Source: a virus (Duplodnaviria > Caudoviricetes). Taken from it: a stretch of 40,488 bases of DNA. The notes beneath the pieces are model-generated. The model was not told the origin of the DNA and ran no database searches. It saw only the letters and a program-made list of their open reading frames with translations. Shown in pieces: positions 3,349-37,422 of this stretch (position 1 is the stretch's first letter; the number at the start of each line of letters is the position of its first letter). Both the position numbers and the translations under genes were made by a program. The DNA lies in IMG/VR virus record IMGVR_UViG_3300049170_000065, positions 1 through 40,488 of that record; one strand, 5' to 3'.

Positions 3349-4626
3349 TCACGCGTGATGCGGAACGACAGTCGGGTTGAACCCCGCCGGCGGCGCCTGA
3401 ACCCACGGCCACCGGCCCCCCGACTCCAACTCCTCCGGCCACTCCCGCTCATCACGGTCACCACGCCACGGCACCAGCTCCACACGCCGGCCCCCGTACA
3501 CCGCCGGGTGATCCGAAGTCCGCACCCCGTAGCCGAACTCCGGCCACCCCATCAGCGATGCCGACCCGCGGGGGCGCAGGTCCCGCTTCCCACCGGTCCC
3601 CACCGCGTGCCCGGCGTGCGCCTCCATCAGCAGCGCCACCCCGCGCTCCCGCACCAGGTTCAGGGCCGCCAGCACCGGGGCGGTGTCGTCGTCGGTCTGC
3701 AACGCCCGCGGCACCAACTGGTACAGCGGCCCGATCACGAGCACGTCCGGGCGGATCAGCGCGATGCGCTTCAGCAGCCACGACACGGCCCGATCCTTGG
3801 ACAGGTCCATCGACCCGATGCCCGGCTCGATCCACAGCTTGTCCTCGGCGATCGGGAACCCCTGCAACCGGGCCTGCGCCACCATCGGCCGCATCTTGCG
3901 GCGGGTCTGGGTGTCGGAGTTCTCCGCGTCCACGATCAGCACCCGCTTCGGCGGGATCGGGGTGTGCTTAAACGGGTGGACCCCCGCGGCGATGCACACC
4001 GCGATCTGCCGCAGCAGCATCGACTTGCCGAGCCCCTCCATGCCGGTGAGCATGAGCCGGTCGCCGCGCTCCAGGAGGTCGGGGACGATCCAGTCGTAGG
4101 ACTCGTCTTCGACGGCGAGGAACTCCTCGATGGTCTGGGTGGGGATCTCCTCGCCGGACTCGAAGTCGCGGACCGCCTCCAGCTCCTCGATGGCGCGCTG
4201 CACAACCCCGGCGACCTCGGTGACGGTGTCGTCGGCCTCGATCTCGTAGCCGATCTGGGCGGTGGCCAGGCCGGCGGCGATGAGGCGTCGGCGGACGGCG
4301 AGGGCGCGGACCTTGTCGGCGAAGTAGGGGCCGTTGGCGGGGGTGGGGACGAACTCGACGAGGCTGTACAGGTAGGGCAGGCCGCCCATCTGCCGCACCT
4401 CGACGTTGTTGACGATGTACTCGGCGACGAACGCGGCGTCGGCGGACCCGTGCTCGGTCCGGGACTTGAGGATGGCGTCGTAGATGATCTGGTGGGCGGG
4501 CCGGTAGAAGTCGCCGGCGGTGACGATGCGGGAGACGCGTTCGGCGGCGTGTTCGGAGAGCATCATCGAGCCGAGGGCGATGGTTTCGGCGTCGATGTCG
4601 TGGGGTGGGACGCGGTGGTCGGTCAT
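3349..4626 (-). CDS. DnaB-like replicative helicase (DnaB N-terminal domain plus RecA/AAA_25 ATPase)
   Basis: PPHDIDAE...DFYRPAHQIIYDAI; Walker A GMEGLGKS; LRPRGSASL motif; coupled to the initiator gene. Confidence 0.88.
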   Translation of the reverse strand: MTDHRVPPHDIDAETIALGSMMLSEHAAERVSRIVTAGDFYRPAHQIIYDAILKSRTEHGSADAAFVAEYIVNNVEVRQMGGLPYLYSLVEFVPTPANGPYFADKVRALAVRRRLIAAGLATAQIGYEIEADDTVTEVAGVVQRAIEELEAVRDFESGEEIPTQTIEEFLAVEDESYDWIVPDLLERGDRLMLTGMEGLGKSMLLRQIAVCIAAGVHPFKHTPIPPKRVLIVDAENSDTQTRRKMRPMVAQARLQGFPIAEDKLWIEPGIGSMDLSKDRAVSWLLKRIALIRPDVLVIGPLYQLVPRALQTDDDTAPVLAALNLVRERGVALLMEAHAGHAVGTGGKRDLRPRGSASLMGWPEFGYGVRTSDHPAVYGGRRVELVPWRGDRDEREWPEELESGGRWPWVQAPPAGFNPTVVPHHA

Positions 4627-19042: not shown

Positions 19043-19555
19043 ATGAGCACCGACCGAACCCCACTCGAGCGCGCCATGAACCAGCGCCGACTCGAACTCG
19101 GTCTTCAGTGGACGGACATCCTCATCGCCGCAGGCGACGGGGATCGGCGACTGGGACCGGAGACACTGCGACGCCTCCGCGTCCAAGGCACCCCCGACGC
19201 CATCAGCGAGCTACGGGTATCCCGCATCGAACGCGCACTGCGGTGGCTACCCGGGTCGATCGCCCGCGTCGCCGACGGACTCGAACCCCTACCCGAGCCC
19301 GATCGGCCAGTGGAGCCCGCCACGACCACTCCCGACCCCGACGTGACTCTGACCCGCGTGGAGCACCCCACTCTTCACGACGACGAGACCCTCGTGTACG
19401 TCCCCGGCAGGAAGCCCGGCACCCGCATCTACGGCTTGACGGTCGCCGACGAGACCGGAGCCCAGTACCGGTTCGCCAAGGACACCCCGCTCGAAACCGT
19501 CATCCGCGAGCTCCGCAAGCTGGCCGGCGTCGTGCGCGCGGCAAGTCCGGATTAG
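19043..19555 (+). CDS. Immunity repressor (XRE-like HTH)
   Basis: LERAMNQRRLELGLQW...RIERALRWLPGSI pattern typical of actinophage repressors. Confidence 0.75.
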   Translation: MSTDRTPLERAMNQRRLELGLQWTDILIAAGDGDRRLGPETLRRLRVQGTPDAISELRVSRIERALRWLPGSIARVADGLEPLPEPDRPVEPATTTPDPDVTLTRVEHPTLHDDETLVYVPGRKPGTRIYGLTVADETGAQYRFAKDTPLETVIRELRKLAGVVRAASPD

Positions 19556-22237: not shown

Positions 22238-22323
22238 CCCGTGTGGTGCCTGTGCCTGCCCGCCGTCCTCGGGCGGGCGCGGGGACCGAACGGTTCACCC
22301 CCTACGCCACGCAGGAGAGCAGC

Positions 22324-23121
22324 ATGATCTTCACGGAGACGGCGTTCGTCGCCGACCTCGACCGGGTCCTCGGACCCGACCCTGGCCTGAACAACCTCGC
22401 CGACCATGCCCCCGACCCCTATCAGCGGCGGTATCAGCGGGCGTGGGCCAGCACCATGATTGCCCTGCACCAGGGCGGCGCTTTCTACGAGTACCGCGCC
22501 TACGCCGCCAAGCGGTCCAAGGCCATGAGCCACCTGAAGCTCGATTCGTGGACCCAGCTCGAACCCGACGTGCTCCGCACCTGGCGGCAGGACCTCTACG
22601 GTTTCCTGTGCGACGGGTGCGGTGGTGCGACGCCGCGCGTGCTGAACGCCGACATCGAGCAGATGTGCCGGGAGTGCGCCGAGCAATTCGGAGCCCGGCC
22701 GGTCGACGTGTCGCCCGTGTGGCGCCCGGCGTGCCACAGCGTGTTCGCGTGGCCGGGCCCGGACGTGAACGACCCCACCGCCAACACCAAGCCGCTGGTC
22801 ACCACGGACTGGAAGTCCGGGGACCGCCGGGTGTACGGGGCGGGCCACCTGACTGCGGTCCACCCCGGATCGACGGGCATCCCGGGCCTGGAGGTGCAGC
22901 ACAGCACCGCCACGGGCGACATGGACGCGCCGACGGTGTCGATGGGGGCGACGGCCGACCGGGGTGTGTCGATGACGGCGGAGTTCGTTTACGAGGGTGA
23001 CGACTTCCGGTTCGTGTCGGGGTTCGTGCGTACCGACAGCGGGGTTTCCGCGTTCGATGAGGTGCATGCGTTTCTCGGCGCGGTCCTGGACGGATCGGTT
23101 TCTGAGGATGGCAAGCGATGA
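22324..23121 (+). CDS. Hypothetical protein with CxxC...CxxC
   Basis: AGGAG RBS; CDGC...CREC; stop overlaps the next ATG. Confidence 0.6.
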   Translation: MIFTETAFVADLDRVLGPDPGLNNLADHAPDPYQRRYQRAWASTMIALHQGGAFYEYRAYAAKRSKAMSHLKLDSWTQLEPDVLRTWRQDLYGFLCDGCGGATPRVLNADIEQMCRECAEQFGARPVDVSPVWRPACHSVFAWPGPDVNDPTANTKPLVTTDWKSGDRRVYGAGHLTAVHPGSTGIPGLEVQHSTATGDMDAPTVSMGATADRGVSMTAEFVYEGDDFRFVSGFVRTDSGVSAFDEVHAFLGAVLDGSVSEDGKR

Positions 23122-23681
23122 GCACCCTGGCCGCTGCGGGCGGCGTGTACATGCTCCTCAGTCTGGGGCACCGGTGGGGCGACCACGGGCTGCAGACCAC
23201 CCACCAAGCCGTCACCAAGGGCAAGCCCGGCGGCGTGGGGAGGGCGGCGTGTGTCCGCCACGTTGCGACCCTCACCGTCACCCAGGCCGGGCTCCTCGCC
23301 GGCGCCGACCTCCTCCTCGGAACCGTTGGGGAGAGCGTGGGCAGCCGGGGCGCGGTCGCTGCGGCCCTGACGCTGAACGCCATCACCCACTACTGGGCGG
23401 ACCGCCGCACCACGCTCGACGGGCTCGCGTCCGCGATGCGGCAGGCGGAGTTCTACCGGTTCGGCACCGCCCTAGCGTCCGGGGCCTACGTCCTCGACCA
23501 GGACTGGCACCGGGTCTGGCTCGTACTGGCCGCCCTGCTGATCGTCGCCCCGACGTTCGCGTTCGGCGCCGCCATCGCCGTGGTGTCCCTGGTCCTGTTT
23601 GCCGCCGCGGTCGCCGCGTCCCGGTACGGGCGGCGCATGGACATCACCCCCCAGCTCAACGCACGCGAGGAGACGTCATGA
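23118..23681 (+). CDS. DUF3307-like membrane protein
   Basis: H..GDH.LQT..QA..K, HY.ADRR, LDQ.WH motifs. Confidence 0.7.
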   Translation: MSTLAAAGGVYMLLSLGHRWGDHGLQTTHQAVTKGKPGGVGRAACVRHVATLTVTQAGLLAGADLLLGTVGESVGSRGAVAAALTLNAITHYWADRRTTLDGLASAMRQAEFYRFGTALASGAYVLDQDWHRVWLVLAALLIVAPTFAFGAAIAVVSLVLFAAAVAASRYGRRMDITPQLNAREETS

Positions 23682-24244
23682 CCACCACCACCAAGAAGAC
23701 CAAGCAGTGCTGCGGCACGTCCGTCGGCGCCATCATCACCGACGAGGCCGGCCGCATGCTCATGGTCACCCGCGGCTGGCACCCCATCGGCATCGCCCCC
23801 GTCGCCGGCCACGCCCGCGACGTCCACTCCAGCGTCCTCGACGCGCTCGTCGCCGAGGTCCGCGAGGAAGTCGGCCTCACCGTCACCGGTCATCAGCAGG
23901 TGTGGGAGGGCCGCCTCGACAACCTGTGTTCCAACATGCCTGCGTCGCCCGCTGGCCACTACTGGTGGGTGCATGACGTCACCGCCTCCGGGACCGTGTC
24001 GGCTGCCCCCGTGGAAACCCGGGGTGCCGACTGGTACACGCCCGATCAGGTGCAGGCCCTCGCTGAACGGACGCTCGACCACGCCCACTCCGGGTTGGCC
24101 GCCGCCGACCAGCCGGTCGCCTCGCTGGAGGCGGTGTGGATCGAGTTGCTGCACCAGGCGGGGCGCATCCGGGTGCGCGACTTCGATCTGGAGGCCGCCC
24201 GCCGCCTGTACACGACCCCGCCCGCGACGTACTGGCGCGGCTGA
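23678..24244 (+). CDS. Nudix hydrolase
   Basis: SVGAII...AGH...AEVREEVGL (variant Nudix box). Confidence 0.82.
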   Translation: MTTTTKKTKQCCGTSVGAIITDEAGRMLMVTRGWHPIGIAPVAGHARDVHSSVLDALVAEVREEVGLTVTGHQQVWEGRLDNLCSNMPASPAGHYWWVHDVTASGTVSAAPVETRGADWYTPDQVQALAERTLDHAHSGLAAADQPVASLEAVWIELLHQAGRIRVRDFDLEAARRLYTTPPATYWRG

Positions 24245-24247
24245 CTC

Positions 24248-24394
24248 GTGCTGGAAACCGAGATCAACCTCGTGCTGACGTTGGCAGTCGTCGTGATCCT
24301 CGCGATCGCGGGATGGGTGCTCACCGGGAACCTGATCGTCGCCCTGATCGGCGCCGGGATCGGATTCATCATCAGTTTCGCATTCGACGTCTAG
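24248..24394 (+). CDS. 48 aa two-TM membrane protein
   Basis: Not in track; MLETEINLVLTLAVVVILAIAGWVLTGNLIVALIGAGIGFIISFAFDV. Confidence 0.6.
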   Translation: MLETEINLVLTLAVVVILAIAGWVLTGNLIVALIGAGIGFIISFAFDV

Positions 24395-24403
24395 GAGGAC
24401 GAC

Positions 24404-24580
24404 ATGGCGAAGGACAAGAAGAACGAAGCCAAGGACGTGAACGGTGCTGCGGTGCAGGCCGACCAGGTCAAGGGCGACGTCACTCAGAAGAAGATCAACG
24501 GCGGCATCGTCAACTACGGCGGCACCAACACCATCACCGGGTGCGTCGTCGGCGACGGCGCGACCATCATCAACCGCTGA
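24404..24580 (+). CDS. 58 aa G/N/V/I-rich beta-type protein
   Basis: Not in track; AGGAGG RBS; MAKDKKNEAKDVNGAAVQADQVKGDVTQKKINGGIVNYGGTNTITGCVVGDGATIINR. Confidence 0.7.
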   Translation: MAKDKKNEAKDVNGAAVQADQVKGDVTQKKINGGIVNYGGTNTITGCVVGDGATIINR

Positions 24581-24676
24581 ACGCAGCGCGGCCCGCCCCG
24601 ATGTCTGCACGACCGGGCGGGCCGCCGAATCCCCCTGATCACCACACGCACAGACGCGCACGGAAGGAGACTCCCC

Positions 24677-24928
24677 ATGATGCTAACCGCTGACGAGGGG
24701 CCCCCCATGCGCGTCGTGCTGTCCATCTACATCGTCACCGCCGCGATCACCGCATGGCGCTACCAGGACGAGTACTGGTTCATCGTGCACGGCGTCGGCG
24801 CTGTGGCTGGGTTCATCGCCCTGTGCTACGGGGTTCACCTCGCTGGACTGGTTGGTGATCTGGAGCGCGAGATCCACGGCCCGGACGAAGACGAAACCGA
24901 CCGATACCTGGAGGGTTGGGATGACTGA
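24677..24928 (+). CDS. Small membrane protein
   Basis: AAGGAG RBS; two hydrophobic segments. Confidence 0.6.
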   Translation: MMLTADEGPPMRVVLSIYIVTAAITAWRYQDEYWFIVHGVGAVAGFIALCYGVHLAGLVGDLEREIHGPDEDETDRYLEGWDD

Positions 24929-26483
24929 GCCCACCGACACCCCGGCCCCCGCGGCTCCCGCCCCGGTGGTCGTCCCCGAGCCACCGAAGGCGGACGACAC
25001 CAAGACCACCAAGGACAAGGAGGAGCCGGGCGCATTTCCGGCCGGCCAGGTCGCCGTCGGCGGGGTCGGAGCCGCTGTGCTCGGGTCCGCCGCCGTCGCG
25101 TCCGTCGTCGGCCCGATCGGGTGGCTGGCCGCACCGGTCGCCGCGGGGGTGGCCGGCGCCGGGTACGTGGCGTACAAGACCCGCCGCCGCGGTCGTGGCG
25201 GTCGTGACGGTTCTGGCCGCCAGGGCCGGTCGCAGTCGGGTTCGCCCCGGCGTGCTGCGGCCGGGTCCCGCATGGGCGGGGTCGGTGGTTCGTCTGGCAC
25301 CCGGAGCGGCGGGGCGGCGGGGCGGTCGCCGTCAGCGGCTCCGGCTCTGCGTCGGTCGGGTGGCGGGGGTTCCGTGTCGTCGCGGCCGGGCGCCCGCGGT
25401 TCTGGTGGCGGTCAGCGCGGCACCTCGCCCCGCCCCGGCGGCGGGGGTCGTGCGGTGAACCCGCGCCCCGCGCCGCGCCTGGGCGGGTCGCGGCCGGCGG
25501 GCGGGGGCAACCGGCCCGGGCCCGGCGGTACGTCGAGCACTAAGCCCCGCGCCACCACTCCCCGCGGCGGCCAGGACCCGTCGTCCTCGAAGCGCTCGAC
25601 GCGGGCCGACCGCCCCGGCTCCGGTCCCGCGCCCTCTCCGCGACCTGCTGGAGGGTCCATGCCCAAGAACCGGTGGGGCGGCGCTGCCGGCCCCACCACC
25701 CGCCCCGAGGGCCGGGTCAAGCGGGCCGCGAAGTCCGCGCGCGACTGGGCGGATGACCGCACCGGCCGCAAAGCGTCCACCGCGTGGCGTGCGGCGCGGG
25801 GTGAGCGCGGGTTCCGCGCCCGGTCCCGTGCGGCCCGCCACGCTGTGCGCCAGTCGGGCGGGGGCCGGGTCATCTCCGGCCTCGTCGGCGCCCTCGCCGC
25901 AATCTTCGCCGGATTCTCCGCCCTGTTCGGCCCCCGCACGGTGCGGTCCGCGAAGGCGGACGCTGAGGCTGCCGCCCAGGAGCAGGCCGCACAGGCAGCG
26001 CAGGACCAGGCCACCGACGCGTCCCCGGGCCCCGCGGGCGCGGCCGGCCAGCCCGCCGCCGCCCAGCCCGCCGGGCACACCCCGAACGCCCAGAAGCAGA
26101 CCACCACCGCGGCTACGGCCGCACCCACCACAGGAGGAACCACCATGGCCGGACTGCCCGCCGCTCAGATCGCCCACGACATGGCCAGTTCCATGTCCCG
26201 CTATGAACCCGTCGACGCCTGGCAGGTCGTCGCGGAGTCCCGGCAGTGGACCGACGTGCCCATGCAGGTCGCCATGTCCGTGAAGGCCTACGCCGACCGC
26301 CTCGACGGCGCCCGCTTCCCTCTGAACCCCGCAGTAGTGGAGAAGCTCCGCGAGTTCTTCCAGGCGATCGCTGCCACCCGGTCCATCGCCGAGGAGATCG
26401 AACCGCTGCTGCGCCGCGCCCACGAAGACGACATCGCCCGCCGCGAGTCCCCCCGCGGCGACGAGACCAAGTGGAACATCTGA
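24921..26483 (+). CDS. Membrane-anchored low-complexity transfer-associated protein (TraA-like position)
   Basis: TM segments, G/R/S/P-rich linker, helical C-terminal domain; immediately upstream of the TraB-like gene. Confidence 0.6.
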   Translation: MTEPTDTPAPAAPAPVVVPEPPKADDTKTTKDKEEPGAFPAGQVAVGGVGAAVLGSAAVASVVGPIGWLAAPVAAGVAGAGYVAYKTRRRGRGGRDGSGRQGRSQSGSPRRAAAGSRMGGVGGSSGTRSGGAAGRSPSAAPALRRSGGGGSVSSRPGARGSGGGQRGTSPRPGGGGRAVNPRPAPRLGGSRPAGGGNRPGPGGTSSTKPRATTPRGGQDPSSSKRSTRADRPGSGPAPSPRPAGGSMPKNRWGGAAGPTTRPEGRVKRAAKSARDWADDRTGRKASTAWRAARGERGFRARSRAARHAVRQSGGGRVISGLVGALAAIFAGFSALFGPRTVRSAKADAEAAAQEQAAQAAQDQATDASPGPAGAAGQPAAAQPAGHTPNAQKQTTTAATAAPTTGGTTMAGLPAAQIAHDMASSMSRYEPVDAWQVVAESRQWTDVPMQVAMSVKAYADRLDGARFPLNPAVVEKLREFFQAIAATRSIAEEIEPLLRRAHEDDIARRESPRGDETKWNI

Positions 26484-26517
26484 CCCCTTAGCTGCACCTG
26501 AACGGAAGGAGCCGACG

Positions 26518-28491
26518 ATGAGTACCCGCGCCCGCGACTGGCACCTGGCCACCGACAGCGTCCTCGGCAACGCCGTGACCGCCGGGGTCGGCATAGCGGC
26601 CACCACGGCCGCCATGGACGCCGCGCAGATGCACCCGGTCGCAGGCGCGGGCTTCGCTGGGATCGGCGCCCTGACCAGCCTCCTGTCCGGCGGCATGGAC
26701 ACCCCGGAACGCGTCACGGCCAACCTGGCCCGGTGGAGTGCGGCCGGAGCCTGGATGTCGTGGGGGATGCTCGACGGGAAGTGGGGGGCGATCCTGCACT
26801 CCGACCCGTGGAGCATCCCCGCGCTGGGCACCCTCGCCGCCGGCTCGGCAATCGGGGCATCCCTGGGGCCGTGGCTGCGGCGCCGCTCCCAGGCCCCCAA
26901 GGGCCAGCCGGGCGGCCTGGTGCTGGGGTCGGCGGCACGGGAGAACGCCGACTGGCAGCAGCGCATCCTGGAACGCGGCGGAATCGGGTTCCGCGGCGTC
27001 GTGGTGGAGTCGGTTACCCGGTGGGGCAACGGGCTCGGCGAGGACGTGCGGGTGGTGCTGCCGAAGGCGGGCGCCACCGTCGACCAGCTCCGCCACCAGC
27101 TCCCCGGGCTGGCCGCGGACGCGAACCTGCCGCACGGGTGCACCATCGAGACGATCGAGCCGAAGGGTGAGGGGCAGCGGGTGGTGACCCTGCGGGTGCC
27201 GACGCGGATGCTGGACAACCTCAACGAGATGCACCCGCTGTGGGATGAGCAGCGGTCCATCCTCGACGGGGTTCCGATCGGGATCCGCCCGAACGGCGAC
27301 ATCGCCGAGGGGCCGATGCGGGAGGAGTCGTGGCTGGTCGTCGGGAAGAAGGGCGCCGGCAAGACGACGTTGCTGCATGGGATCACGGCGACGGTGGGGA
27401 TGTGCTCCGACGCGCTGGTGTGGCACATCGACCTCAACGGGGGCGGCATGACGCAGCCGTGGGTGGATGTGTGGCTGGACGGGCGCGTGGAGCGGTGTCC
27501 TGTCGACTGGTCGGCGCCCACGATCGACGAGGCGCTGCGGATGACTGAGGTCGCAGTGCGGATCGCACTCCACCGCAAGGGCGCGTACCGCAAGCGGAAG
27601 AAGGCCCACAATACGAACCTGCTGCCGATCGGCGCGGACCTGCCGGAGATCGTCATCATGCTCGACGAGGGCGCCGAGGCGATGGCAGCAGGCGGCAAGG
27701 GCGCCGTGGGTCAGCTCGCCGCGAACCTGGAGAAGATTCAGCGCATCGCCCGAAACGAAGCCGTGAACCTCGTCCTCAGCGTGCTGCGCGGGACCGGGGA
27801 TCTGGTGCCCGCGGCGATGACCACCCAGACCGGGGTGGGCATCTGCATGAAGGTCCGCCAGCAGAAGGAAATCGCCTCGGTTTTCGAAGTGGCCTACGAG
27901 CTGAAGATGAAGCCGGAGCACCTGATCGCGAAGGGCGCCGGGTGGATCGGGGTCGACGGCGACCTGCCGTCCCGCTACCAGACGTGGAACATCCTGCCCG
28001 ACGACATGGAACAGATGGCGCTCCGGATCGCCCGTCAGCGCCCGGACCTGGATGAGGCATCGGCGAAGGTCGCCGGGGAGGACTACGCGACCCGCTACGA
28101 CCGGATGCGGGAGTTGTTCGCGGAGGACGCCGAGATCGTCGAGGCGCCCGCCCGGGTGTCGACCGCGGCGGCAACGTCGTCGTCGGTGACCGCCGACTGG
28201 GATACGGGGTTCACTGCGACCGTCACCGAGGTCCGCCCCGCCCTCCCGCCGGCTGCGGCCGACGACATCCTCGCCGAGGCGTTGCGGGTGATGGATGCGG
28301 CGGGGGTGGACCGGATGGGCCGGGAGCAGCTCGCCGCGGAGCTGACGGGCGGGGACGAGGACGCGCTCCGCCGGGCGATGGTCAACGCCGGTGCGGGTGC
28401 CCCGCATTCGATCCGGTTGGCGGATGGAACCCCGGCGCGGGGTTGGTATCGGCGTGAGGTTGAGGCGGCGACGGCTGTGACGGCGGCGTGA
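26518..28491 (+). CDS. TraB-like FtsK/SpoIIIE conjugative DNA translocase
   Basis: N-terminal TM segments, Walker A GKKGAGKT, WHIDLNGG, Walker B IVIMLDEG, C-terminal winged-helix ending RGWYRR. Confidence 0.82.
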   Translation: MSTRARDWHLATDSVLGNAVTAGVGIAATTAAMDAAQMHPVAGAGFAGIGALTSLLSGGMDTPERVTANLARWSAAGAWMSWGMLDGKWGAILHSDPWSIPALGTLAAGSAIGASLGPWLRRRSQAPKGQPGGLVLGSAARENADWQQRILERGGIGFRGVVVESVTRWGNGLGEDVRVVLPKAGATVDQLRHQLPGLAADANLPHGCTIETIEPKGEGQRVVTLRVPTRMLDNLNEMHPLWDEQRSILDGVPIGIRPNGDIAEGPMREESWLVVGKKGAGKTTLLHGITATVGMCSDALVWHIDLNGGGMTQPWVDVWLDGRVERCPVDWSAPTIDEALRMTEVAVRIALHRKGAYRKRKKAHNTNLLPIGADLPEIVIMLDEGAEAMAAGGKGAVGQLAANLEKIQRIARNEAVNLVLSVLRGTGDLVPAAMTTQTGVGICMKVRQQKEIASVFEVAYELKMKPEHLIAKGAGWIGVDGDLPSRYQTWNILPDDMEQMALRIARQRPDLDEASAKVAGEDYATRYDRMRELFAEDAEIVEAPARVSTAAATSSSVTADWDTGFTATVTEVRPALPPAAADDILAEALRVMDAAGVDRMGREQLAAELTGGDEDALRRAMVNAGAGAPHSIRLADGTPARGWYRREVEAATAVTAA

Positions 28492-28650
28492 CGCCTGGCC
28501 GTCACGGTTGTGACGGTGTCACACGCGTGACACCCGTTGTGACGCTCTGACCTGCTGTAACACCGTGACGGTCGGGTGCGACAACCCCGGTTTCCGGCCC
28601 TCAGGGCCCCTGAACCCCCCACCCCATGCGGCGGTGTCACACCGTCACAC
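28476..28650. repeat. clt-like short repeat cluster (YGTGACRS)
   Basis: GTGAC at 28477, 28488, 28510, 28527, 28539, 28565; GTCAC at 28501, 28518, 28636, 28644. Confidence 0.7.
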
Positions 28651-28721
28651 GACAAAGCGAAGGGCCCGCCCCGAACCGTCAAGCACCGGGCGGGCCCACC
28701 CCATAGAGAGGCACCACCATC

Positions 28722-30107
28722 ATGGCATCCAGCATCCTCGACGCCGCACGGCAGGCCCTGGCGTGGGCCAGCGGCCCTGTGCTCAGCGGTGTCCTCACGC
28801 TCACCATGAGCGTGGTCCTGCTGTCCGGCGCCCTGTGGCTGCTGCGCAGGACCACCCGGAAATGGGCTGACCGACCGCCCCGCGACGGGGCGTTCTCCCG
28901 AGGCGACATCGCCGCGATCGCGTCCGTCCTCGGACTGGCCCTGCTGTTCGTGTCGGTGGCGTTCGCCATGAGCGCGGCCACCCTGTACTCCTCCGCGACC
29001 TGGTTGAAGTCCACCCCGATCCCGCTCAACGGCGGTGACCTGCGGTTCCTGTTCCCGCTGGTCCTCGACGGGCTCATCGTCATGTTCCTGGCGCTGGACC
29101 TGTGGACCGAGTGGAAGCACATCCGCCACCCCTACTACCGGTGGGTGGCTTACGGGTTGTCCCTGCTCACCCTGTACCTGAACGTGCGCCACGGCGGCGG
29201 CGGGTCGCTGATCGGGCATGCCGCCCCGCCCCTCGGGGTCATCGTCATCAGTGAGGGCTTGGCGATCTGGATCCGGTCTATGGCGGGCCTGGTGGAGACG
29301 GGCCGGACACCGGACCGGGTGCCGATGGGCCACTGGATCGCCCGTCCCGCGTCGGCGTTTCGGGTGTGGCGGCTGATGCTCGGCTGGAACATCACCAGCT
29401 ACGGGGACGCGGTGGAGATGGAGCGGCGCCGGTCGATGGCCTATGCGATGCTGCGCGAGCAGTACGGCGACACCTGGCGGGAGGCGACACCGGAGCATGT
29501 CCGGTGGATGCTGAACAACGGACACGACCTGGATGTCGCCTACGACATCACCCGGGCGCTGACGGAGGAGCGCGTCGCCCTGTCCGCCGAGGAGGTGTCC
29601 GGGCGACGCGACACCGTCCGGCCGGCGGTCGCGTCCGGCGACGTGCGACACGACGCCGACGGTGCGACACCGGACCCCGGGGCGGGGGGCGACAGCGACA
29701 CGACGCCCGTGGGCGACACCGATGTCGCGGTGGTGGTGGCGTCGGACACGGCGGTGGATGTCGCCCCCGACAGCGACATGGGCGACGCGACAGCACCCCG
29801 GCCTGCGGATGTCGCCTCCTCGGGCACGCTGGTGTCGCGGGGCGACGTGTCGCCTGTCGTGCCGGAGACGCCTGTCGTGTCGCTGTCGGACATGGCGGAG
29901 CGCGACCGGCAGGTCGTGGAGTGGCTGCGACAGGACCCGGACATGTCCGGTGCGGAGATCGGGCGTCGCATCGGGGCGACAGCGAAGACCGGACAGCGAC
30001 TCAAGAGCAAGCTGGCCCCTGTCGCGCGACAGGCCGCCGAGGGCGACGTCCCGGCGGACGCGACGGCGGACAGCGACAGTGACGCGGCGGACACCGCCGT
30101 CGTGTGA
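28722..30107 (+). CDS. DUF2637 / Spd-like membrane protein with C-terminal HTH
   Basis: FAMS...LFPLVLDGLIV...LYLNV.H...HAAPP.....E; C-terminal PDMSGAEIGRRIGATAKTGQRL. Confidence 0.78.
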   Translation: MASSILDAARQALAWASGPVLSGVLTLTMSVVLLSGALWLLRRTTRKWADRPPRDGAFSRGDIAAIASVLGLALLFVSVAFAMSAATLYSSATWLKSTPIPLNGGDLRFLFPLVLDGLIVMFLALDLWTEWKHIRHPYYRWVAYGLSLLTLYLNVRHGGGGSLIGHAAPPLGVIVISEGLAIWIRSMAGLVETGRTPDRVPMGHWIARPASAFRVWRLMLGWNITSYGDAVEMERRRSMAYAMLREQYGDTWREATPEHVRWMLNNGHDLDVAYDITRALTEERVALSAEEVSGRRDTVRPAVASGDVRHDADGATPDPGAGGDSDTTPVGDTDVAVVVASDTAVDVAPDSDMGDATAPRPADVASSGTLVSRGDVSPVVPETPVVSLSDMAERDRQVVEWLRQDPDMSGAEIGRRIGATAKTGQRLKSKLAPVARQAAEGDVPADATADSDSDAADTAVV

Positions 30108-30359
30108 GGTGTCGTCTCTCTGGTGCCGCAGCGGTGTCGCGGCGCTGGGGAGGGGGCGCGTCGTTCGAAGAGTAGAGGAGCGCGATGTTGCACGACCCGT
30201 CCGCAGTCCTGGCCCTTCTGTACGCCTCCCCGGATGCGGCTGTGGTGTTGCGTTCGGGTCGTTTGGTGGTGGCGGTGCCCGAGCCTGGGGAGCGGGTGGT
30301 GTTGACCCGGGAGGGGTTGCTGCACGGCGGGTGGGGGGCGCTGTGGGAACTGGTGGCGT

Positions 30360-30423
30360 AATTTCCGGTACCGCTTATTGACAGCAGGGGTCGCCACCCC
30401 TAGATTAAGCGGTACCGGAAATT
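30360..30423 (+). promoter_or_regulatory. Near-consensus promoter flanked by a perfect 18 bp inverted repeat
   Basis: AATTTCCGGTACCGCTTA (30360-30377), TTGACA-17-TAGATT, TAAGCGGTACCGGAAATT (30406-30423). Confidence 0.85.
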
Positions 30424-30442
30424 CCTGACCTGGGGAGACCAG

Positions 30443-30892
30443 ATGGCCACCTTCACCTACCGCATCGAAACCAACTACGCCGACACCGGCGACATCCCGC
30501 GCTGGGCCATCGAGAACGACGACGCCCGAGGAACCGAGCACATCACCGACGCGACCGCCGCCGACGTCGCCCGCGAGATCGCCGACAACCGCCGCGCCGA
30601 CCTCGAAGCGAACCAGGAGACCGGCGAGTGGCGGGTCCTGGTGTGGGAGCGCGACACCGAAGGCGACGCCGACCACATCCCCGCCACCGTCCACTTCGCC
30701 CTCACCGAGGACGACTACCGGCGCGGCCGGGGACGCCCCGCGATCGGCCCCGAGGTGAAGACGCGCCTGGCCGACCACGAGGTGGCGCAGGTCGACGCGA
30801 TCGCGGCGTCCACCGGGCTGTCGCGGGCGCAGGTCATCCGCCAGGCCGTGCAGGGCTACCTCGCACAGCAGGTCCGCACCTATCAGCTCTGA
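30443..30892 (+). CDS. Acidic domain fused to C-terminal ribbon-helix-helix
   Basis: RGRGRPAIGPEVKTRLADHEVAQVDAIAASTGLSRAQVIRQAV. Confidence 0.78.
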   Translation: MATFTYRIETNYADTGDIPRWAIENDDARGTEHITDATAADVAREIADNRRADLEANQETGEWRVLVWERDTEGDADHIPATVHFALTEDDYRRGRGRPAIGPEVKTRLADHEVAQVDAIAASTGLSRAQVIRQAVQGYLAQQVRTYQL

Positions 30893-30917
30893 CCATAGGA
30901 AAGCGAAGGAGAACAGC

Positions 30918-31400
30918 ATGCTGACCGACATCACCGTCACCATCGACGACGTCGACCTGGCGGACAAGAGGAACGCGTGGCTCCTCGCCGCCGAGGCGGC
31001 CGGGTACACCATCGAGACAGCGGGGACCGACGACCTGGGGCGCCCGATCGTTGAGCACGATGGCACCACCTACGTCCTGGACAGCTACTACAAGCACCCG
31101 AACCGCTGGGTGGTCATCGCGAGGCAGCCGCCCTACCTGCGGGTGGAGATCATGGCGTCCAACGGCAAGGAAGTCGGGGACGAGAGCGTGCAGACCTGGG
31201 GCATCACCGACGGCCGCGATTCGTTCGCGGATCAGGTCCCCTACTACGAAGACGACACGATCACCGACGCCATCGACCGGTTCCGCGCGAAGGGGGCGCT
31301 GCCGGAGGGCGAGACCGAGGTGATCGACGAGGAGGACACCAGCGACGTCTTCTGGGCCGTGGAGGGGCACGGCCGCTACATCGTGGAGATCACCGGATGA
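30918..31400 (+). CDS. Very acidic hypothetical protein (160 aa)
   Basis: AAGGAG RBS; D/E-rich. Confidence 0.7.
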   Translation: MLTDITVTIDDVDLADKRNAWLLAAEAAGYTIETAGTDDLGRPIVEHDGTTYVLDSYYKHPNRWVVIARQPPYLRVEIMASNGKEVGDESVQTWGITDGRDSFADQVPYYEDDTITDAIDRFRAKGALPEGETEVIDEEDTSDVFWAVEGHGRYIVEITG

Positions 31401-31430
31401 CGCCAGCGGCGAGCGAGTAGGCACCGCCTC

Positions 31431-31463
31431 CGGCCCGGCCCCCACGACGGGGGCCGGGCTTCG
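31431..31463. terminator. Hairpin terminator between convergent genes
   Basis: GCCCGGCCCCC-loop-GGGGGCCGGGC. Confidence 0.7.
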
Positions 31464-31468
31464 TGCTG

Positions 31469-32509
31469 TCAGGCGCCTGCGCGCGCGGGCGGTAGGAGGG
31501 GTTCGTCGTACACGGACTGGTCCGCCGGGTTGGCGAAGGGCGTGTAACCGCCGTTGCGGGGTTTGTTGATGCTGCGCCAGTAGGCGCCCATGTCGGTGTC
31601 GGCGAGGCTGCGAGGCGCCTCTGCGGGGGCGCCGAGGGCGGTTACGAGATCGGGTCGGGCGTCCCCGCCGACCTGGGCGAGGTGGGCGCGGATCACGTCG
31701 GCGTCGCCGGCTTTGATGTCGCCCATGCACAGGGAGCATCCGCCGCCGTGGAGTGTGGTGGCGTGCAGACCGCACTTGGCGGCGGTGGGCCGGGTCCGGC
31801 GGCGGGCGGCGGCGAGGTCGCGTTGGAGGTCGCGGTCGGGGCGTCCGGTGATCCAGGTGGTGATGGAGCGGATGCGGGTCCCTGCTGCGGCGGCTTGGGT
31901 TTCGATGAGGTCGACGACGGCGGCGGCCTCGTCCTCGGTGCAGCCGGTGCGTTCGGTGACGATCTGTTCTGGTGTCTTCCTCTTCCTCGTCGCCTTCTCA
32001 GCGGCGGGCTCCGAAGAGGATGACGGATCCCCTGAGGGATCACCTGACGGATCTACTGATGGATAGGGGTCACCGGAGGTACCTTCGTTGGTACCTCCCA
32101 GGTACCTTTGCCGGTCCCCACGGGAACCATTGGTGTGCCCCACGGGGACCTTTGCCCCCTCCTCGGTGTCCTCTTCGAACCCGAGTCCGGGCACCAGGTT
32201 GTCGTCGTAGACCCGGTCGGGGCGCCGCATCGACTCCAGCCGCTTCACGTTGATGCGGGAGGCGTTGGTCGTCCGGCCGCCGCCCGACTTGCCGCGCTTC
32301 ACGGTCACGAGGAGGCCCACGTCGAGAAGCTGCTTGCGGACCTTCTTCACGCCGCTGACGGACAGCCCGGTCATGTCGGCGATGCGCTCGACGCCGGGCC
32401 AGCAGTACCCGTGCGGGTCGGTGAAGTTGCAGTAGGCCAGCAGGACCGCCTTCTGGGGGGCGGTGAGGTCTTGGGCGTCGAAGACCGTCTGCATGTGCTG
32501 GATGCTCAT
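31469..32509 (-). CDS. Second replication initiator-like protein (N-terminal winged HTH)
   Basis: QKAVLLAYCNFTDPHGYCWPGVERIADMTGLSVSGVKK; internal DNA repeats; PSVDPSGDPS linker. Confidence 0.78.
   Translation of the reverse strand: MSIQHMQTVFDAQDLTAPQKAVLLAYCNFTDPHGYCWPGVERIADMTGLSVSGVKKVRKQLLDVGLLVTVKRGKSGGGRTTNASRINVKRLESMRRPDRVYDDNLVPGLGFEEDTEEGAKVPVGHTNGSRGDRQRYLGGTNEGTSGDPYPSVDPSGDPSGDPSSSSEPAAEKATRKRKTPEQIVTERTGCTEDEAAAVVDLIETQAAAAGTRIRSITTWITGRPDRDLQRDLAAARRRTRPTAAKCGLHATTLHGGGCSLCMGDIKAGDADVIRAHLAQVGGDARPDLVTALGAPAEAPRSLADTDMGAYWRSINKPRNGGYTPFANPADQSVYDEPLLPPARAGA
32021..32156. repeat. Iteron-like repeats within the second initiator
   Basis: Four ~22 bp units starting at 32068, 32090, 32113 and 32135 (core GGNACCTTTG-like), preceded by four 12 bp GANGGAT units. 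Confidence 0.65.
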
Positions 32510-32759
32510 CGCGCGCCTCCCTGGGGGAGGTACGCGAACGTGTCTCGCTGAGTAGCGTCCCGGTTCCGGGTACGGGCTACCATGTGACTAGGATTCATCC
32601 CTAGCCGCCTTCCTGAGTACGCAGGTCGGTGGTCAGAGGCCGTTTGGGTGTTACCAGCACCCGGCGGCCTCGCTTTATGTAGTTGTGCCCCTAGTTTACC
32701 TGCGCCGCAGGCGATCCCGGGCGGAACCGGCCCCGCGGCCGGGCACTAGGGTGTCCGGC

Positions 32760-33293
32760 GTGACCGACTCGAAATGGACCATCCGCGGCGAACGCCTCGT
32801 CGACGAGAACCGCCACATCCGCCTCACCCAGGTCGACATCACCCTCCCCGACGGGATCGAGTTCACCCAGTACGTCGCAACCCTCCCGCCAGCCGCGATG
32901 ACCCTGGTCATGAACGAACAGCGGGAGATCCTGCTGATGCGCCGTCACCGGTTCATCATCGACCGGTGGGTGTGGGAGTTGCCCGGCGGCTACGTCGACC
33001 CCGCCGAGGACATCGCGGTCGCGGCGGCCCGGGAGGTCGAGGAGGAAACCGGGTGGCGACCCCGCAGCATGGAGCACCTGGTGACGTTCCAGCCCGCGAT
33101 CGGCAGCGTGGACCAGCCGCAGATCGTCTACCTCGCCCGCGGCGCCGACCCCACCGGGGCGGCCCCCGACATCAACGAGGCCGAGGAGATCCGGTGGTGG
33201 CCCTTGGAGGAGGCGGTCGCGATGATCGACCGGGGTGACCTCGTCGGCGCCGCTTCCGTGGTGGCCGTGTACCGGGCGCTCACGCTGCCGTAG
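32760..33293 (+). CDS. Nudix hydrolase (ADP-ribose pyrophosphatase-like)
   Basis: WELPGGYVDPAEDIAVAAAREVEEETGW canonical Nudix box; probable leaderless GTG after TAGGGT. Confidence 0.9.
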   Translation: MTDSKWTIRGERLVDENRHIRLTQVDITLPDGIEFTQYVATLPPAAMTLVMNEQREILLMRRHRFIIDRWVWELPGGYVDPAEDIAVAAAREVEEETGWRPRSMEHLVTFQPAIGSVDQPQIVYLARGADPTGAAPDINEAEEIRWWPLEEAVAMIDRGDLVGAASVVAVYRALTLP

Positions 33294-34632
33294 TCAGCTC
33301 CCCGGCGCGCATCTGAAACGCCGCGACCTCCGGCATCCCGCAGTGGGGGCGGAGCCGGTGCTGGACGTCGCGCAGGTAGGACACCGCCCGCCGCGACTCC
33401 AACCCCTCCACCAGCGACAGGGCCTCCTCGCCGACCCGCGCCGCCTCCACCGGGTCCTCGGCCGCGCGGGCGCCGGCGAGCATGAGCAGGTTGAACGCGC
33501 GGCCGCGCACGAAGCTGTTGTCCATGTCGAGGGACCGGTCGGCGTACCGGGCGGTCTGGGCGTCGGAACCCATGGACCGGAAGCAGTGCGCGATCCTCGC
33601 GCTGAGGTAGGCGTCGTCGAAGAACCGCAGCCACTCCGGGGCGTTGGGGTCGTCGCGGTCGAACGCGCGCTCCCCGGCCGCCAGCGCGGTCGAGCACGCG
33701 CGGCCATCCAGCCGGACGGCGTGCCCGTGCGCCTCGATCAGCAGGCACTCCGCCATCAGCGCCGGGTGCCCCGCGCGGCGGGCCGCGGTCTGGGCGGCGC
33801 GCGCCAGGTCGACGGCGTCCCCGCCGCGGCCGACGTAGGTGGCCTGGTGGCCCATGGCGGCAAGCACCTCGGCGCACAGGGCGTCGTCCCCGGCGGTCTG
33901 CGCCATCCGCAGGGACTGGACGAGGTAGCGCTGGGCGATGCCGTGCTCCTCCAGGTCATACGCCATCCACCCGACTTCGCGGGTCAGCTCGGCGGCGGCG
34001 GAGAACAGCGCCTTGCCGATCTCCTCGGTGTAGGTGCCACGCAGCAGGGGGGCGACGTTGGAGTGGAGGTACTGCACGACGGTGGCCCGGACCCTTCCGC
34101 CGCCGAACTCGTTGTCGAGCGCGCGGAACGCCCGCGTCATCTGCCGCAGGGCGGCGATCTCGGGGCGGCCCACACGGGACCGGCCGCGGTGGGCGGGCAC
34201 GTCGCCTCCTGGCAGGGTCAGCCACCGCACCGCGGTGGAGGGGTAGGCGGCGGTGGAGTAGGCCGCGGTGGTGAGCGCGCGTCGGCGTTCGGCGTCGGCC
34301 CGGTAGAGGGCGTCAGCCGCGGCGATGCCGTCCGTCCACGACATCCCGAACTCCAGGGCGACGTCGACACTCCCGCCGGCGAACCCGCAGGCGTCGGGGG
34401 TGATGGTGCGCCCGAGGTGCTCGGAGATGACCTCGGCGATGAGGTGCGGGGCGGGCGGGAGCGGCTGCTCCCCCTCCAGCCACCGCCGGACGCTGTTGTG
34501 GTCGTAGCCGAGGTCGACGCCGCGGTCCGCGCCGCGGGCGACGACCCGGCGCGCCAAGCCCTTGGCGGGGAGGCCGGTCTCGGCGAGGAGGTCGGCGAGC
34601 AATCGGTTCGGGGCCTTCGGCTGTCGCGGCAC
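33280..34632 (-). CDS. XRE-like HTH plus TPR-like regulator (NsdA/sporulation-associated type)
   Basis: PNRLL...YDHNSVRRWLEGEQP; ALDNEFGGGR; VGWMAYD...AQRYLVQSLR; GAGGAG RBS. Confidence 0.8.
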   Translation of the reverse strand: MPRQPKAPNRLLADLLAETGLPAKGLARRVVARGADRGVDLGYDHNSVRRWLEGEQPLPPAPHLIAEVISEHLGRTITPDACGFAGGSVDVALEFGMSWTDGIAAADALYRADAERRRALTTAAYSTAAYPSTAVRWLTLPGGDVPAHRGRSRVGRPEIAALRQMTRAFRALDNEFGGGRVRATVVQYLHSNVAPLLRGTYTEEIGKALFSAAAELTREVGWMAYDLEEHGIAQRYLVQSLRMAQTAGDDALCAEVLAAMGHQATYVGRGGDAVDLARAAQTAARRAGHPALMAECLLIEAHGHAVRLDGRACSTALAAGERAFDRDDPNAPEWLRFFDDAYLSARIAHCFRSMGSDAQTARYADRSLDMDNSFVRGRAFNLLMLAGARAAEDPVEAARVGEEALSLVEGLESRRAVSYLRDVQHRLRPHCGMPEVAAFQMRAGELTTAA

Positions 34633-34817
34633 GGTGGTCTCCTCGATCAGGGTTGTCCGCAGTGTGACACGGGTCATGGCCTGCGCCTACACCCTCGGCG
34701 TTTCTCACTCCCGGTGCGCACGCCCCCTCCCGTCGTGCACGCCTAGGCGGGGGTTGCGCGCCTTCCCCGGTGCTGGTCGCCGGGGGTTGTGTGGGGTGTA
34801 GACCACGGGAGGTGGAG

Positions 34818-35419: not shown

Positions 35420-35534
35420 GGGGGGAGTTGCGGGCGGGCGGGAGGTCTGAGATTGCGCGCCGGTCCCCGGGGGAAGCCGCCCGCCACCAAGCCCGTCGCC
35501 GGGGGGCGGCGGGCTTCTCCGTTTTCGAAGAATT

Positions 35535-35576
35535 ATCTACCCCCCTCTAGACATCGCATCTAGAGGGGGGTAGATT
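35535..35576 (+). promoter_or_regulatory. Promoter embedded in a perfect 17 bp inverted repeat
   Basis: ATCTACCCCCCTCTAGA-7 nt-TCTAGAGGGGGGTAGAT; TAGACA-17-TAGATT. Confidence 0.82.
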
Positions 35577-35607
35577 CATGTCATCGGCAGGCGAGAGGAG
35601 CCCGGAG

Positions 35608-36111
35608 ATGGACACCACCACCGCAGCGCAGCAGGCCAAGGTCACCACCGCCACCATCCGCACCTGGTGCCGGATCGGCGCCGTCGCCGCCACCAAGCAG
35701 GCCGGCCGGTGGACCATCGACGCCGCCTCCCTCGCCCGCCGCATCGCCCTCACCCCCCGCAAGACCCCCAAGAAGATCATCTACAGCGTCGAGACCATGA
35801 CCGCCATCGGCGGCAGCCGCTGGACCAAAGCCGGACACGACCGCGTCTACATCAACAACTGGGCCGACTTCGCCGGGCTGGAGATCACCCGCTACAACAC
35901 CGGCAACATCTCCGGCGCCTCCTGGCAGGGCCAGGGCATCTCCAACTCCCAGGGCGCCAAGCTCGCCGCCTCCATCGACAAGATCTGGTTCGACGCCGCC
36001 ACCGGCAAGATCCACTGCCGCTACGGCTACACCGAATCCCGCGTCGCCACCCGGGACGAGGTCTTCGACGCCACCGTCGCCGGCATCCGCCGCGCCATCG
36101 CCGCCCTCTAG
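35608..36111 (+). CDS. N-terminal excisionase/MerR-type HTH fused to an unknown domain
   Basis: MDTTTAAQQAKVTTATIRTWCRIGAVAATKQAGRWTID; GAGGAG RBS. Confidence 0.8.
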   Translation: MDTTTAAQQAKVTTATIRTWCRIGAVAATKQAGRWTIDAASLARRIALTPRKTPKKIIYSVETMTAIGGSRWTKAGHDRVYINNWADFAGLEITRYNTGNISGASWQGQGISNSQGAKLAASIDKIWFDAATGKIHCRYGYTESRVATRDEVFDATVAGIRRAIAAL

Positions 36112-36122
36112 AAAGCTACGGA

Positions 36123-36671
36123 ATGGACGAGTACTACACCATCCACTGGGACAAGCTCCGCGCCCTGGACGACCGCGCCCAGCTCGACGTCCTCGCCCGC
36201 CTCGGCGCCCACGCCACCGCCGAAGCCAAAGCCGAACGCGCCCGCATCGTCGCCCGCACCGTCCTCAACCTCGGGTCGCAGCGCGCCGCCGCCGCCCACC
36301 TCCACATGAAGACCGCCCGCCTGGGGCAGATCTGGAAGGACCACGAGAAGATGACCCTCACCTACACCGCCGCGATCTGCACCGACTCCAGCACCGTTGC
36401 CGGCGACTACTGCGACGTGTCCGTCGCCGCCGACGAGCTCGTCGGCTACCGGGAGGACGACGACGGCAACGCGACCCCCCAGTACGCCATGGGGTCCACC
36501 GTGGTCCTGGAGGCCATCGAGACCGGCGTCCGGGTGGACGACGACGACAAGCTGGAGAAGGCCGAGAAGGCCGCCGAGAAGATCCTCGAAGACCAGGGGT
36601 GGACGGTGACCGGCCCCTGGAAGGCCTCCGACAACGCCATGTACGCCCAGGTCGAGCGTAACGACAACTAG
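36123..36671 (+). CDS. HTH-like N-terminus plus acidic C-terminal domain
   Basis: GSQRAAAAHLHMKTARLGQI; acidic second half. Confidence 0.7.
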   Translation: MDEYYTIHWDKLRALDDRAQLDVLARLGAHATAEAKAERARIVARTVLNLGSQRAAAAHLHMKTARLGQIWKDHEKMTLTYTAAICTDSSTVAGDYCDVSVAADELVGYREDDDGNATPQYAMGSTVVLEAIETGVRVDDDDKLEKAEKAAEKILEDQGWTVTGPWKASDNAMYAQVERNDN

Positions 36672-36696
36672 TCGAGACCCACAGAAGGAGCCCCCC

Positions 36697-36984
36697 ATGA
36701 TCACGAAGATCACTGCCGACGACATCCGCGACCTGTACGACGCCAACCTGCGGTTCGAGGCGTCCGGTGGCGCCCCGTCCGGCCACAACGACCAGCTCGG
36801 ACCCGTCCTCGCTCTGCGCGACGGGCAGGTGCAGGTGATGCCGGAGCTGACGGCCGTCGCCCAGCGCGCCCGCATCCTCTACACCGGCGACCAGCTCGAC
36901 TCCTGGCTCGACGGCACGGAGCTGCGGAACGGCGAGGCGGAGACGATCGCCGCCGAGGCGACGGCGGATCTCACGAATCCCTGA
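36697..36984 (+). CDS. Small acidic hypothetical protein (95 aa)
   Basis: GAAGGAG RBS. Confidence 0.7.
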   Translation: MITKITADDIRDLYDANLRFEASGGAPSGHNDQLGPVLALRDGQVQVMPELTAVAQRARILYTGDQLDSWLDGTELRNGEAETIAAEATADLTNP

Positions 36985-37009
36985 CACGCGCGCCCCCGCC
37001 GGTTAGAGT
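36981..37009 (+). promoter_or_regulatory. Candidate promoter for the mini-array
   Basis: CTGACA-17-TAGAGT. Confidence 0.55.
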
Positions 37010-37042
37010 GGCACCCACAGACCCGAGACCCGCGCACGCGGG

Positions 37043-37193
37043 AATGCCCCGCCTCGCGCGGGAGTGGACCAGATGCCGGCGGCTGAGCCGTCTACTGCAC
37101 GGTCAATGTCCCGCGCACGCGGGAGTGGACCCGATGCTAGAGACCGCGGCGTCTAAAGCATGGTCAATGTCCCGCGCACGCGGGAAGATCACC
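37043..37193 (+). CRISPR. Type I-E-like mini-array: 3 repeats, 2 spacers, no cas genes in window
   Basis: Repeats 37043-37071 (degenerate), 37104-37132 CAATGTCCCGCGCACGCGGGAGTGGACCC, 37165-37193 (degenerate 3' end); 32 nt spacers; 61 bp period; extra hairpin copy at 37029-37042. Confidence 0.85.
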
Positions 37194-37194
37194 G

Positions 37195-37230
37195 GAAGCC
37201 CCGGCTCCACGGCCGGGGCTTTCCCCTTTT
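37195..37230 (+). terminator. Intrinsic terminator closing the mini-array
   Basis: AAGCCCCGGC-TCCACG-GCCGGGGCTT followed by TCCCCTTTT. Confidence 0.8.
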
Positions 37231-37269
37231 CCCAGGACGTGCGCGCTCCGCCGGATGCACCATGGGGAC

Positions 37270-37422
37270 ATGGACGACGACCTGCCCGACGACGAGTGGT
37301 TCGCCTGGTTCCGGGAGCAGGCGGGAATCCACGAGGAGGACCTGCCGCCGATGACGCTGGCCGCGCGCGAGCAGGCCATGGCCGCGTACACGGACCGCAA
37401 AGACCGCGCCAAGGAGCGCTGA
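37270..37422 (+). CDS. 50 aa acidic protein
   Basis: Not in track; MDDDLPDDEWFAWFREQAGIHEEDLPP...; possibly leaderless. Confidence 0.5.
   Translation: MDDDLPDDEWFAWFREQAGIHEEDLPPMTLAAREQAMAAYTDRKDRAKER

Follow-up and report, generated by a model that had tools for sequence, protein, structure and literature searches.

A two-guide type I-E array in a phage genome is predicted to park host Cascade on a regulatory site upstream of cas3

Virus record IMGVR_UViG_3300049170_000065 belongs to a soil actinobacterial phage and is linear, 40,488 bases long, and 69% complete. The whole record was analyzed and is referred to below as the window. We propose, with a probability of about 0.8, that it carries a two-guide Cracr array of type I-E and that guide 1 parks host Cascade on an AAG-flanked site, thereby repressing the adjacent gene. 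Judged by its sequence, the array belongs to the Cracr class through spacer 1. In the proposed mechanism, the array would be transcribed into an RNA of about 215 nt, and host Cas6e would cut this RNA 3' of each hairpin to release two guides. Guide 1, which copies a crRNA-like regulatory RNA of the host, would load on host Cascade, and the complex would bind the AAG site by a partial R-loop without calling Cas3 or cutting. Binding without cleavage is expected because spacer 1 ceases to match beyond position 20, and Cas3 requires a complete R-loop. Binding would repress the small ORF located just downstream, a predicted guard toxin, and possibly also the cas operon beyond it, and the phage guides would compete with immune crRNAs for Cascade. 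The likely benefit for the phage would be to keep the guard toxin off while Cascade is drained or inhibited.

A wider reading, which we hold tentatively and at slightly below even odds, is that an undescribed Cascade-repressed membrane-peptide toxin, encoded upstream of cas3, guards actinobacterial type I-E systems. The phage would disarm it with multiplexed copies of antitoxin guides, acting as a type I-E Cracr that silences a toxin, likely in combination with anti-CRISPRs encoded among the acidic ORFs directly upstream of the array.

Organization of the array and its genomic context

All features of the array are located on the plus strand. Three repeat hairpins have 3' arms ending at positions 37063, 37124, and 37185, with a period of 61 nt. 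The window contains three copies of the 14-nt hairpin motif (at 37029, 37110, and 37171) versus 0.56 expected, and none of 100 shuffled sequences reached three occurrences. The original prediction of three 29-nt repeats at this period holds for the hairpins, but only repeat 2 (37104 to 37132) is intact, repeats 1 and 3 being degenerate. Repeat 1 (37042 to 37071) keeps the 5' handle GTGGACCA and has an altered hairpin, with 5 nt in the loop and C-A as the stem's basal pair. Repeat 3 (37165 to 37193) keeps the stem and hairpin and has lost the handle (AGATCACC). The handle assigned to each repeat is accordingly present in the first two only, and repeat 2 is the sole repeat displaying both the stem and the handle as first described. 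The extra 5' copy of the repeat hairpin was recovered as an exact motif (37029 to 37042). Repeat 1 is predicted to pair with this copy in a longer stem instead of folding by itself (alternative fold, z = –3.3), a folding that could hinder the release of guide 1.

The candidate promoter CTGACA-17-TAGAGT (36981 to 37009) has 9 of 12 consensus matches and was found again as the sole such site between 36000 and 38500 (mean of 0.1 in shuffled sequences). It overlaps the stop codon of the upstream ORF, and the predicted start site is near position 37016. Downstream from repeat 3, a G+C hairpin followed by a short T tail (37194 to 37232) is terminator-like, as judged from its fold and from shuffling: the hairpin proper (37194 to 37223) has a folding energy of –25.9 kcal/mol (z = –3.7), and none of 200 shuffles was as good. 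The terminator initially proposed is supported by the strength of this hairpin, but the T-run is short and the hairpin does not appear in the list returned by the terminator scan. The proposals that the array is a stand-alone transcription unit and that its RNA would load host Cascade both fit the sequence and the host comparison presented below.

Spacers 1 (37072 to 37103) and 2 (37133 to 37164) are both 32 nt long and are identical at 22 of 32 positions. This similarity, absent from the original prediction, was reached by none of 100,000 shuffles and by 2 of 16,653 pairs of host spacers. Because it is so rare, the two spacers are homologous and not independently acquired. No AAG-plus-seed site for self-targeting was detected within the window.

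The array is placed between an operon of small uncharacterized genes and convergent lysis genes, in a window with a G+C content of 70.7%. Families identified among 60 selected ORFs of the window comprised phage replication, recombination, WhiB, lysis, head morphogenesis, FtsK/SpoIIIE, and DUF2637. No cas family was found among these 60 ORFs and no cas6e by a six-frame search of the linear, 69%-complete record, in agreement with the cas-less character attributed to the array. Within the limits of this record, the array belongs to a mobile element and lies apart from CRISPR-cas loci. The window had no Rfam match at gathering thresholds. The region from 22243 to 34677, inside the phage genome, encodes FtsK/SpoIIIE, DUF2637, RHH, and NUDIX proteins and a second replication initiator, a gene set which we take to resemble an actinomycete conjugative element module.

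The operon directly upstream of the array (35578 to 36984) encodes an HTH_17-like basic protein followed by two acidic uncharacterized proteins (pI of 4.8 and 4.2). Directly in front of the HTH gene at 35578 is a perfect inverted repeat (35535 to 35575) with 17-bp arms around 7 central nt, and a related inverted repeat also precedes the homolog of this gene in locus L072. The inverted repeat is likely to be the operator of a self-regulated operon. The layout resembles that of anti-CRISPR operons, and these genes are candidate anti-CRISPR genes; the upstream ORFs had no match to a known anti-CRISPR family in any search run. Type I-E anti-CRISPR proteins of actinobacteria could be sought in this operon.

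Contigs from three other sequencing runs, belonging to three other studies, align across the array region. The alignments extend from 35434 to 37225 (70 other letters and 21 gaps), from 35490 to 37225 (67 and 17), and from 36518 to 37225 (35 and 13). All three end at 37225, at the terminator-like hairpin, and a joint from 37225 to 37365 is found in three of the four runs. No joint skipping a 61-nt unit is listed among the related contigs, and no RNA dataset is listed among the sequencing runs holding the array. Exact repeat or spacer motifs returned no locus in viral, genome, or metagenome contigs. A looser two-hairpin pattern returned 11 viral loci, which were set aside as mostly unrelated inverted repeats or long arrays. 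Matches of the array region to phage and plasmid records were limited to short ones due to chance, and searches with the neighboring proteins revealed no array-carrying relative, the fetched loci containing neither repeat hairpins nor repeats. In a different virus (L002, IMGVR_UViG_3300007272_000064), we observed a three-repeat, type I-E-like mini-array on the minus strand (~1490 to 1650). Eleven of the first 12 bases are identical between its two spacers, and this mini-array is a candidate Cracr array.

Likely host and origin of spacer 1

Thermobifida phage P1312 encodes the closest relative of the endolysin (71% across the amidase domain), together with two Nocardiopsis genomes (74% and 70%). 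For this reason, the family of one of these (G001) was searched, and the two-hairpin repeat pattern matched 7 of 201 family genomes. Genomes G030 and G119 contain long arrays with the same T-A stem pair as the phage repeat. This pair had been regarded as compensatory relative to the canonical stem; it is present, but a phage-specific change was rejected since the host arrays carry it too. In G119, the array is located directly after cas3, cse1, cse2, cas7, cas5, cas6e, cas1, and cas2. Repeat 2 of the phage is identical to the G119/G030 array repeat at 26 of 29 positions and thus resembles a repeat found beside a complete type I-E operon. This comparison with host repeats, which the original prediction had suggested, fits the type I-E assignment.

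Two type I-E loci are present in a third genome, G017, and the locus on contig C80 belongs to the same lineage: the identity of its Cas3 N-terminus reaches 68–69% with the G119 and G030 counterparts and does not exceed 50% with the other matches among 401 genomes. The G017 locus contains cas3, cse1, cse2, cas7, cas5, cas6e, and cas1. From the fetched G017 loci, 73 type I-E spacers were extracted and compared to the window. Four of them matched beside AAG, three with few mismatches (1, 2, and 2) and one with 6; among 185 spacers taken from other genomes, the best had 7. Because its spacers match the window, G017 is the likely host of close kin of this phage, as judged from these sequence matches.

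Upstream of cas3, G017 (locus L067) contains a degenerate repeat-spacer-repeat, crRNA-like unit, with a spacer starting at 18923. Spacer 1 is a near copy of this regulatory guide, with 20 of the first 21 bases identical and a sole difference at position 6. The last 11 bases have diverged from the G017 guide, and every pairing base of positions 1–20 is kept. In type I-E Cascade, every sixth base is unpaired. An equivalent statement has been made for type I-F (PMC10120712). Spacer 1 shares with the host CreR/CreA-like spacer the at least 9 PAM-proximal bases expected of a Cracr array, and sequence identity indicates that it derives from the host regulatory unit. One of the runs with related contigs also has a contig with a 30-nt loose end identical to the 5' flank of the G017 unit. 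Streptomyces plasmid matches to the host unit were rejected as ordinary arrays.

The site of spacer 1 was found by scanning the fetched loci for PAM-anchored seeds, which returned one long run. It is located at position 19206 of L067, in non-coding DNA, and is flanked by AAG; positions 1–16 match except 6 and 12. At 19203 to 19221, AAG is followed by positions 1–5, 7–11, 13–16, and 18–20, paired identically by spacer 1 and the host guide. AAG followed by positions 1–16 of spacer 1 (6 and 12 free) occurs once, in 1 of 401 family genomes, versus no occurrence of the reversed-pattern control, a result to be read with the 16-base length having been picked after the match was seen and with the site match not being independent of the homology to the host guide. 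When 80,912 32-mers of the window were compared with the six AAG sites of the interval, spacer 1 alone ranked first (run of 16 versus 12 for the next), and G017 is the sole one of 30 cas3-upstream regions with such spacer 1 matches. Gene repression, one of the functions first envisaged for the array, is thereby provided with a specific predicted target, the host regulatory site matched by spacer 1 with an AAG PAM. The spacer search with an AAG PAM proposed at the same time identified this G017 site, but no convincing protospacer in phages or plasmids.

The same layout of the unit is found in G030, where the guide differs and has an AAG site of its own, matched at positions 1–17 except 8 and 12. 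G119 has a related cas operon without the regulatory unit. In G119 (L065, ~4480 to 4560), the 5' flank of the unit is kept, the unit and the small ORF are absent, and the upstream sequence is unrelated. Two-repeat units were also seen away from cas genes in G102 (L027) and G049 (L029), at ~1500 to 1580, with no cas6e match in G049. In G017, a spacer from an array with non-I-E repeats (L116, ~1490 to 1540) matches positions 37374 to 37413 of the window at 93%, and a G017 spacer targets the second gene of the operon upstream of the phage array (36232 to 36263).

The small hydrophobic ORF and alternative explanations

In G017, a ribosome-binding site and a hydrophobic ORF of 31 residues (96 bp) are located 76 nt downstream of the AAG PAM. 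G030 similarly contains, downstream of its AAG site, a ribosome-binding site and a hydrophobic ORF of 32–34 residues. The two peptides (GRAVY of 1.63 and 1.24) are 42% identical (pairwise E-value of 5e-8), and the differences between the ORFs fall at the first, second, and third codon positions in 14, 11, and 23 of 31 codons, i.e. mostly at the third. The order in both hosts is small ORF, conserved strong hairpin, antisense guide unit, and cas3. A profile search of 1.84 billion proteins returned two matches, a clear 38-residue homolog and a repetitive protein. A peptide search of 151 genomes returned seven matches at an E-value of 0.05, with short ORFs only at the two known loci. The peptide had no family above cut-off (a Pfam match at an E-value of 0.062 was dismissed as far below it), and no relatives were found in viral contigs. 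The third homolog of the peptide, protein P0011, is encoded on a JGI/IMG contig (12 kb at most), and the target of spacer 2 might lie in its surroundings. In G017 and G030, a crRNA-like RNA encoded in the cas locus partially matches a PAM-flanked site just upstream of a small gene, as in CreTA modules. This layout is CreTA-like, and the small ORF is a candidate membrane-peptide guard toxin, with toxicity predicted from sequence and position.

A first alternative is that the array is a Cracr of the CreR type only: the site would control the cas3-Cascade operon, and the small ORF would be a harmless passenger or a leader. Such a role is consistent with the location of the AAG site, which shares its strand with cas3 and precedes the first cas3 start codon by 381 nt, and with the repression of casA by the tested Salmonella type I-E Cracr (bioRxiv 10.1101/2024.10.29.618823) and also by the tested type I-E CreR (bioRxiv 10.1101/2023.03.10.532045). 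However, a conserved ORF with a ribosome-binding site comes first, a strong conserved hairpin lies between this ORF and cas3, and the ORF is conserved at the protein level, making control of cas3-Cascade alone rather unlikely. The sigma-70 scan returned no promoter in the host intervals of G017 and G030; next to the G030 site, a TG-n-TATAGT motif was noticed by eye only. Since the scan found no promoter in either host, guide 1 may repress the cas operon instead of, or in addition to, the small ORF.

Alternatively, the RNA could be a pure decoy, as are the Racrs, merely sequestering Cas6e and Cas7, with the spacer sequence as a leftover of the capture. The extra 5' hairpin, devoid of an upstream handle, is like a solitary repeat, and both spacers can form hairpins, albeit weakly (z = –0.9 and –1.6). 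Type I-E Racrs inhibit Cascade (PMC10651486), and Cracrs also compete for Cas proteins (bioRxiv 10.1101/2024.10.29.618823). In contrast, both guides have full 8-nt handles, and spacer 1 retains all the pairing bases of the host guide in positions 1–20 while its last 11 bases have diverged, which renders a pure decoy improbable. The three repeats at a 61-nt period and the extra hairpin also differ from a solitary repeat, which is single and without neighboring repeats. Conserved structure of the spacer hairpins was ruled out, the two stems being in different registers with weak z-scores. A decoy effect, also considered originally, may occur as a side action.

Guides killing rival phages or plasmids, as in inter-viral mini-arrays, would account for the full-length 32-nt spacers and the intact middle repeat. 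Virus-targeting viral mini-arrays have been described (PMC10120712), and sequence collections are incomplete. However, spacer 2 had no match in 50,697 phage records, none in viral contigs, and only six weak matches in plasmids (E-values of 0.7–9). A parA match of spacer 2 in a plasmid was rejected as a target since it is flanked by GCC and not by AAG. Spacer 1 had 17 short matches (E-values of 0.3–3), none covering more than 69% of the spacer, and it derives from the host regulatory unit. In the collections searched, the spacers do not match other mobile elements as those of inter-viral mini-arrays do. Killing guides are accordingly very improbable, and competition between elements, which the original prediction had listed, found no support in the phage, viral-contig, and plasmid searches.

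Returning to the repressing array, spacer 2 is homologous to spacer 1 and to the host regulatory guides. It is identical to the latter at 18 and 16 of 32 positions, and to the G017 site at 19 of 32. Its first five bases and a motif in the middle are also those of spacer 1 and of the host guides, but the seed differs; it lacks the run of at least 9 PAM-proximal bases in common with either of the two host guides found. One-mismatch matches of spacer 2 numbered five in three genus genomes versus two in the control, and no target was found in five chosen genomes. Its single AAG match in 401 genomes (G009) was judged to be due to chance, being on another contig than the cas3 match of that genome. 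No cognate locus was found in 30 cas3-upstream regions or 401 genomes. The collection holds one genome per species, with three for the genus of G017, and a strain variant of the target would consequently be missed. We infer from the homology of the spacers that guide 2 may serve a variant of the G017 site in another strain; in Cracr arrays, stacked spacers are directed at different variants of a single system. A captured host unit that was duplicated and now decays as an inert relic might explain the degenerate repeats 1 and 3 and the missing target of spacer 2, but this is hardly credible given the intact candidate promoter and terminator, a degeneration that follows a functional handle/hairpin pattern, and a block kept in relatives from three other runs that align across the region.

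Comparison with known systems

The closest counterpart of the phage array is the CracrIE1/2 array of a Salmonella prophage, which is also viral, located away from cas genes, of type I-E, and composed of three repeats and two spacers (bioRxiv 10.1101/2024.10.29.618823). A further feature in common is a spacer with a match to a host CreR/CreA and to the PAM-flanked site of the latter (bioRxiv 10.1101/2024.10.29.618823). The spacers of CracrIE1/2 are 24 and 21 nt long versus 32 nt here, and the likely first target here is the small-ORF toxin candidate, whereas the type I-E Cracr of the preprint was tested against the casA promoter (bioRxiv 10.1101/2024.10.29.618823). The same preprint reports 16 two-spacer type I-E arrays and candidates directed against Actinomycetota, and the phage array may be among its 219 candidates (bioRxiv 10.1101/2024.10.29.618823). 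Its main text mentions neither Nocardiopsis, Thermobifida, nor Streptosporangiales (bioRxiv 10.1101/2024.10.29.618823). We found no description of this actinobacterial module in the literature, although the candidate tables of the preprint may list the array.

The retention of the handle in repeat 1 and of the hairpin in repeat 3 follows the CreR pattern (bioRxiv 10.1101/2023.03.10.532045). The units of G017 and G030 resemble CreR and CreA in being degenerate guides made of two repeats and in partially matching an AAG site (bioRxiv 10.1101/2023.03.10.532045; PMC12055562). The type I-E CreTA of Citrobacter rodentium includes a translated toxin ORF of 96 bp, the size of the G017 ORF, a likeness in length (PMC12055562). 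The C. rodentium module is located between cas3 and casA, with the guide upstream of the ORF, whereas the G017 and G030 modules are upstream of cas3, with the guide downstream of the ORF and convergent to it (PMC12055562).

The viral mini-arrays matching host regulatory mini-arrays described by Shmakov et al. resemble the phage array, with the difference that the worked examples are of types I-B and I-F and that the actinobacterial case has no confident target (PMC10120712). Racrs, including RacrIE1-2, are phage RNAs mimicking the host repeat, as here, and would likewise compete for Cas6 and Cas7. They are single repeats with an active product devoid of a 5' handle, in contrast to an array with handles and a targeting spacer (PMC10651486). 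Type I-E is not mentioned in the passages of bioRxiv 10.1101/2024.12.27.630466 compared here.

The class is thus known from the Cracr preprint, and the present case adds a complete actinobacterial set: a phage guide, the host guide that it copies, a host site, a likely host, and a candidate toxin. Repression of CreT by a Cracr was tested in type I-F (bioRxiv 10.1101/2024.10.29.618823). In the parts of the literature compared here, the casA promoter is the sole target on which a type I-E Cracr was tested, and toxin silencing was tested in type I-F alone. If the peptide is toxic, toxin-silencing Cracrs would extend from type I-F to type I-E, and the peptide would define a new CreT family.
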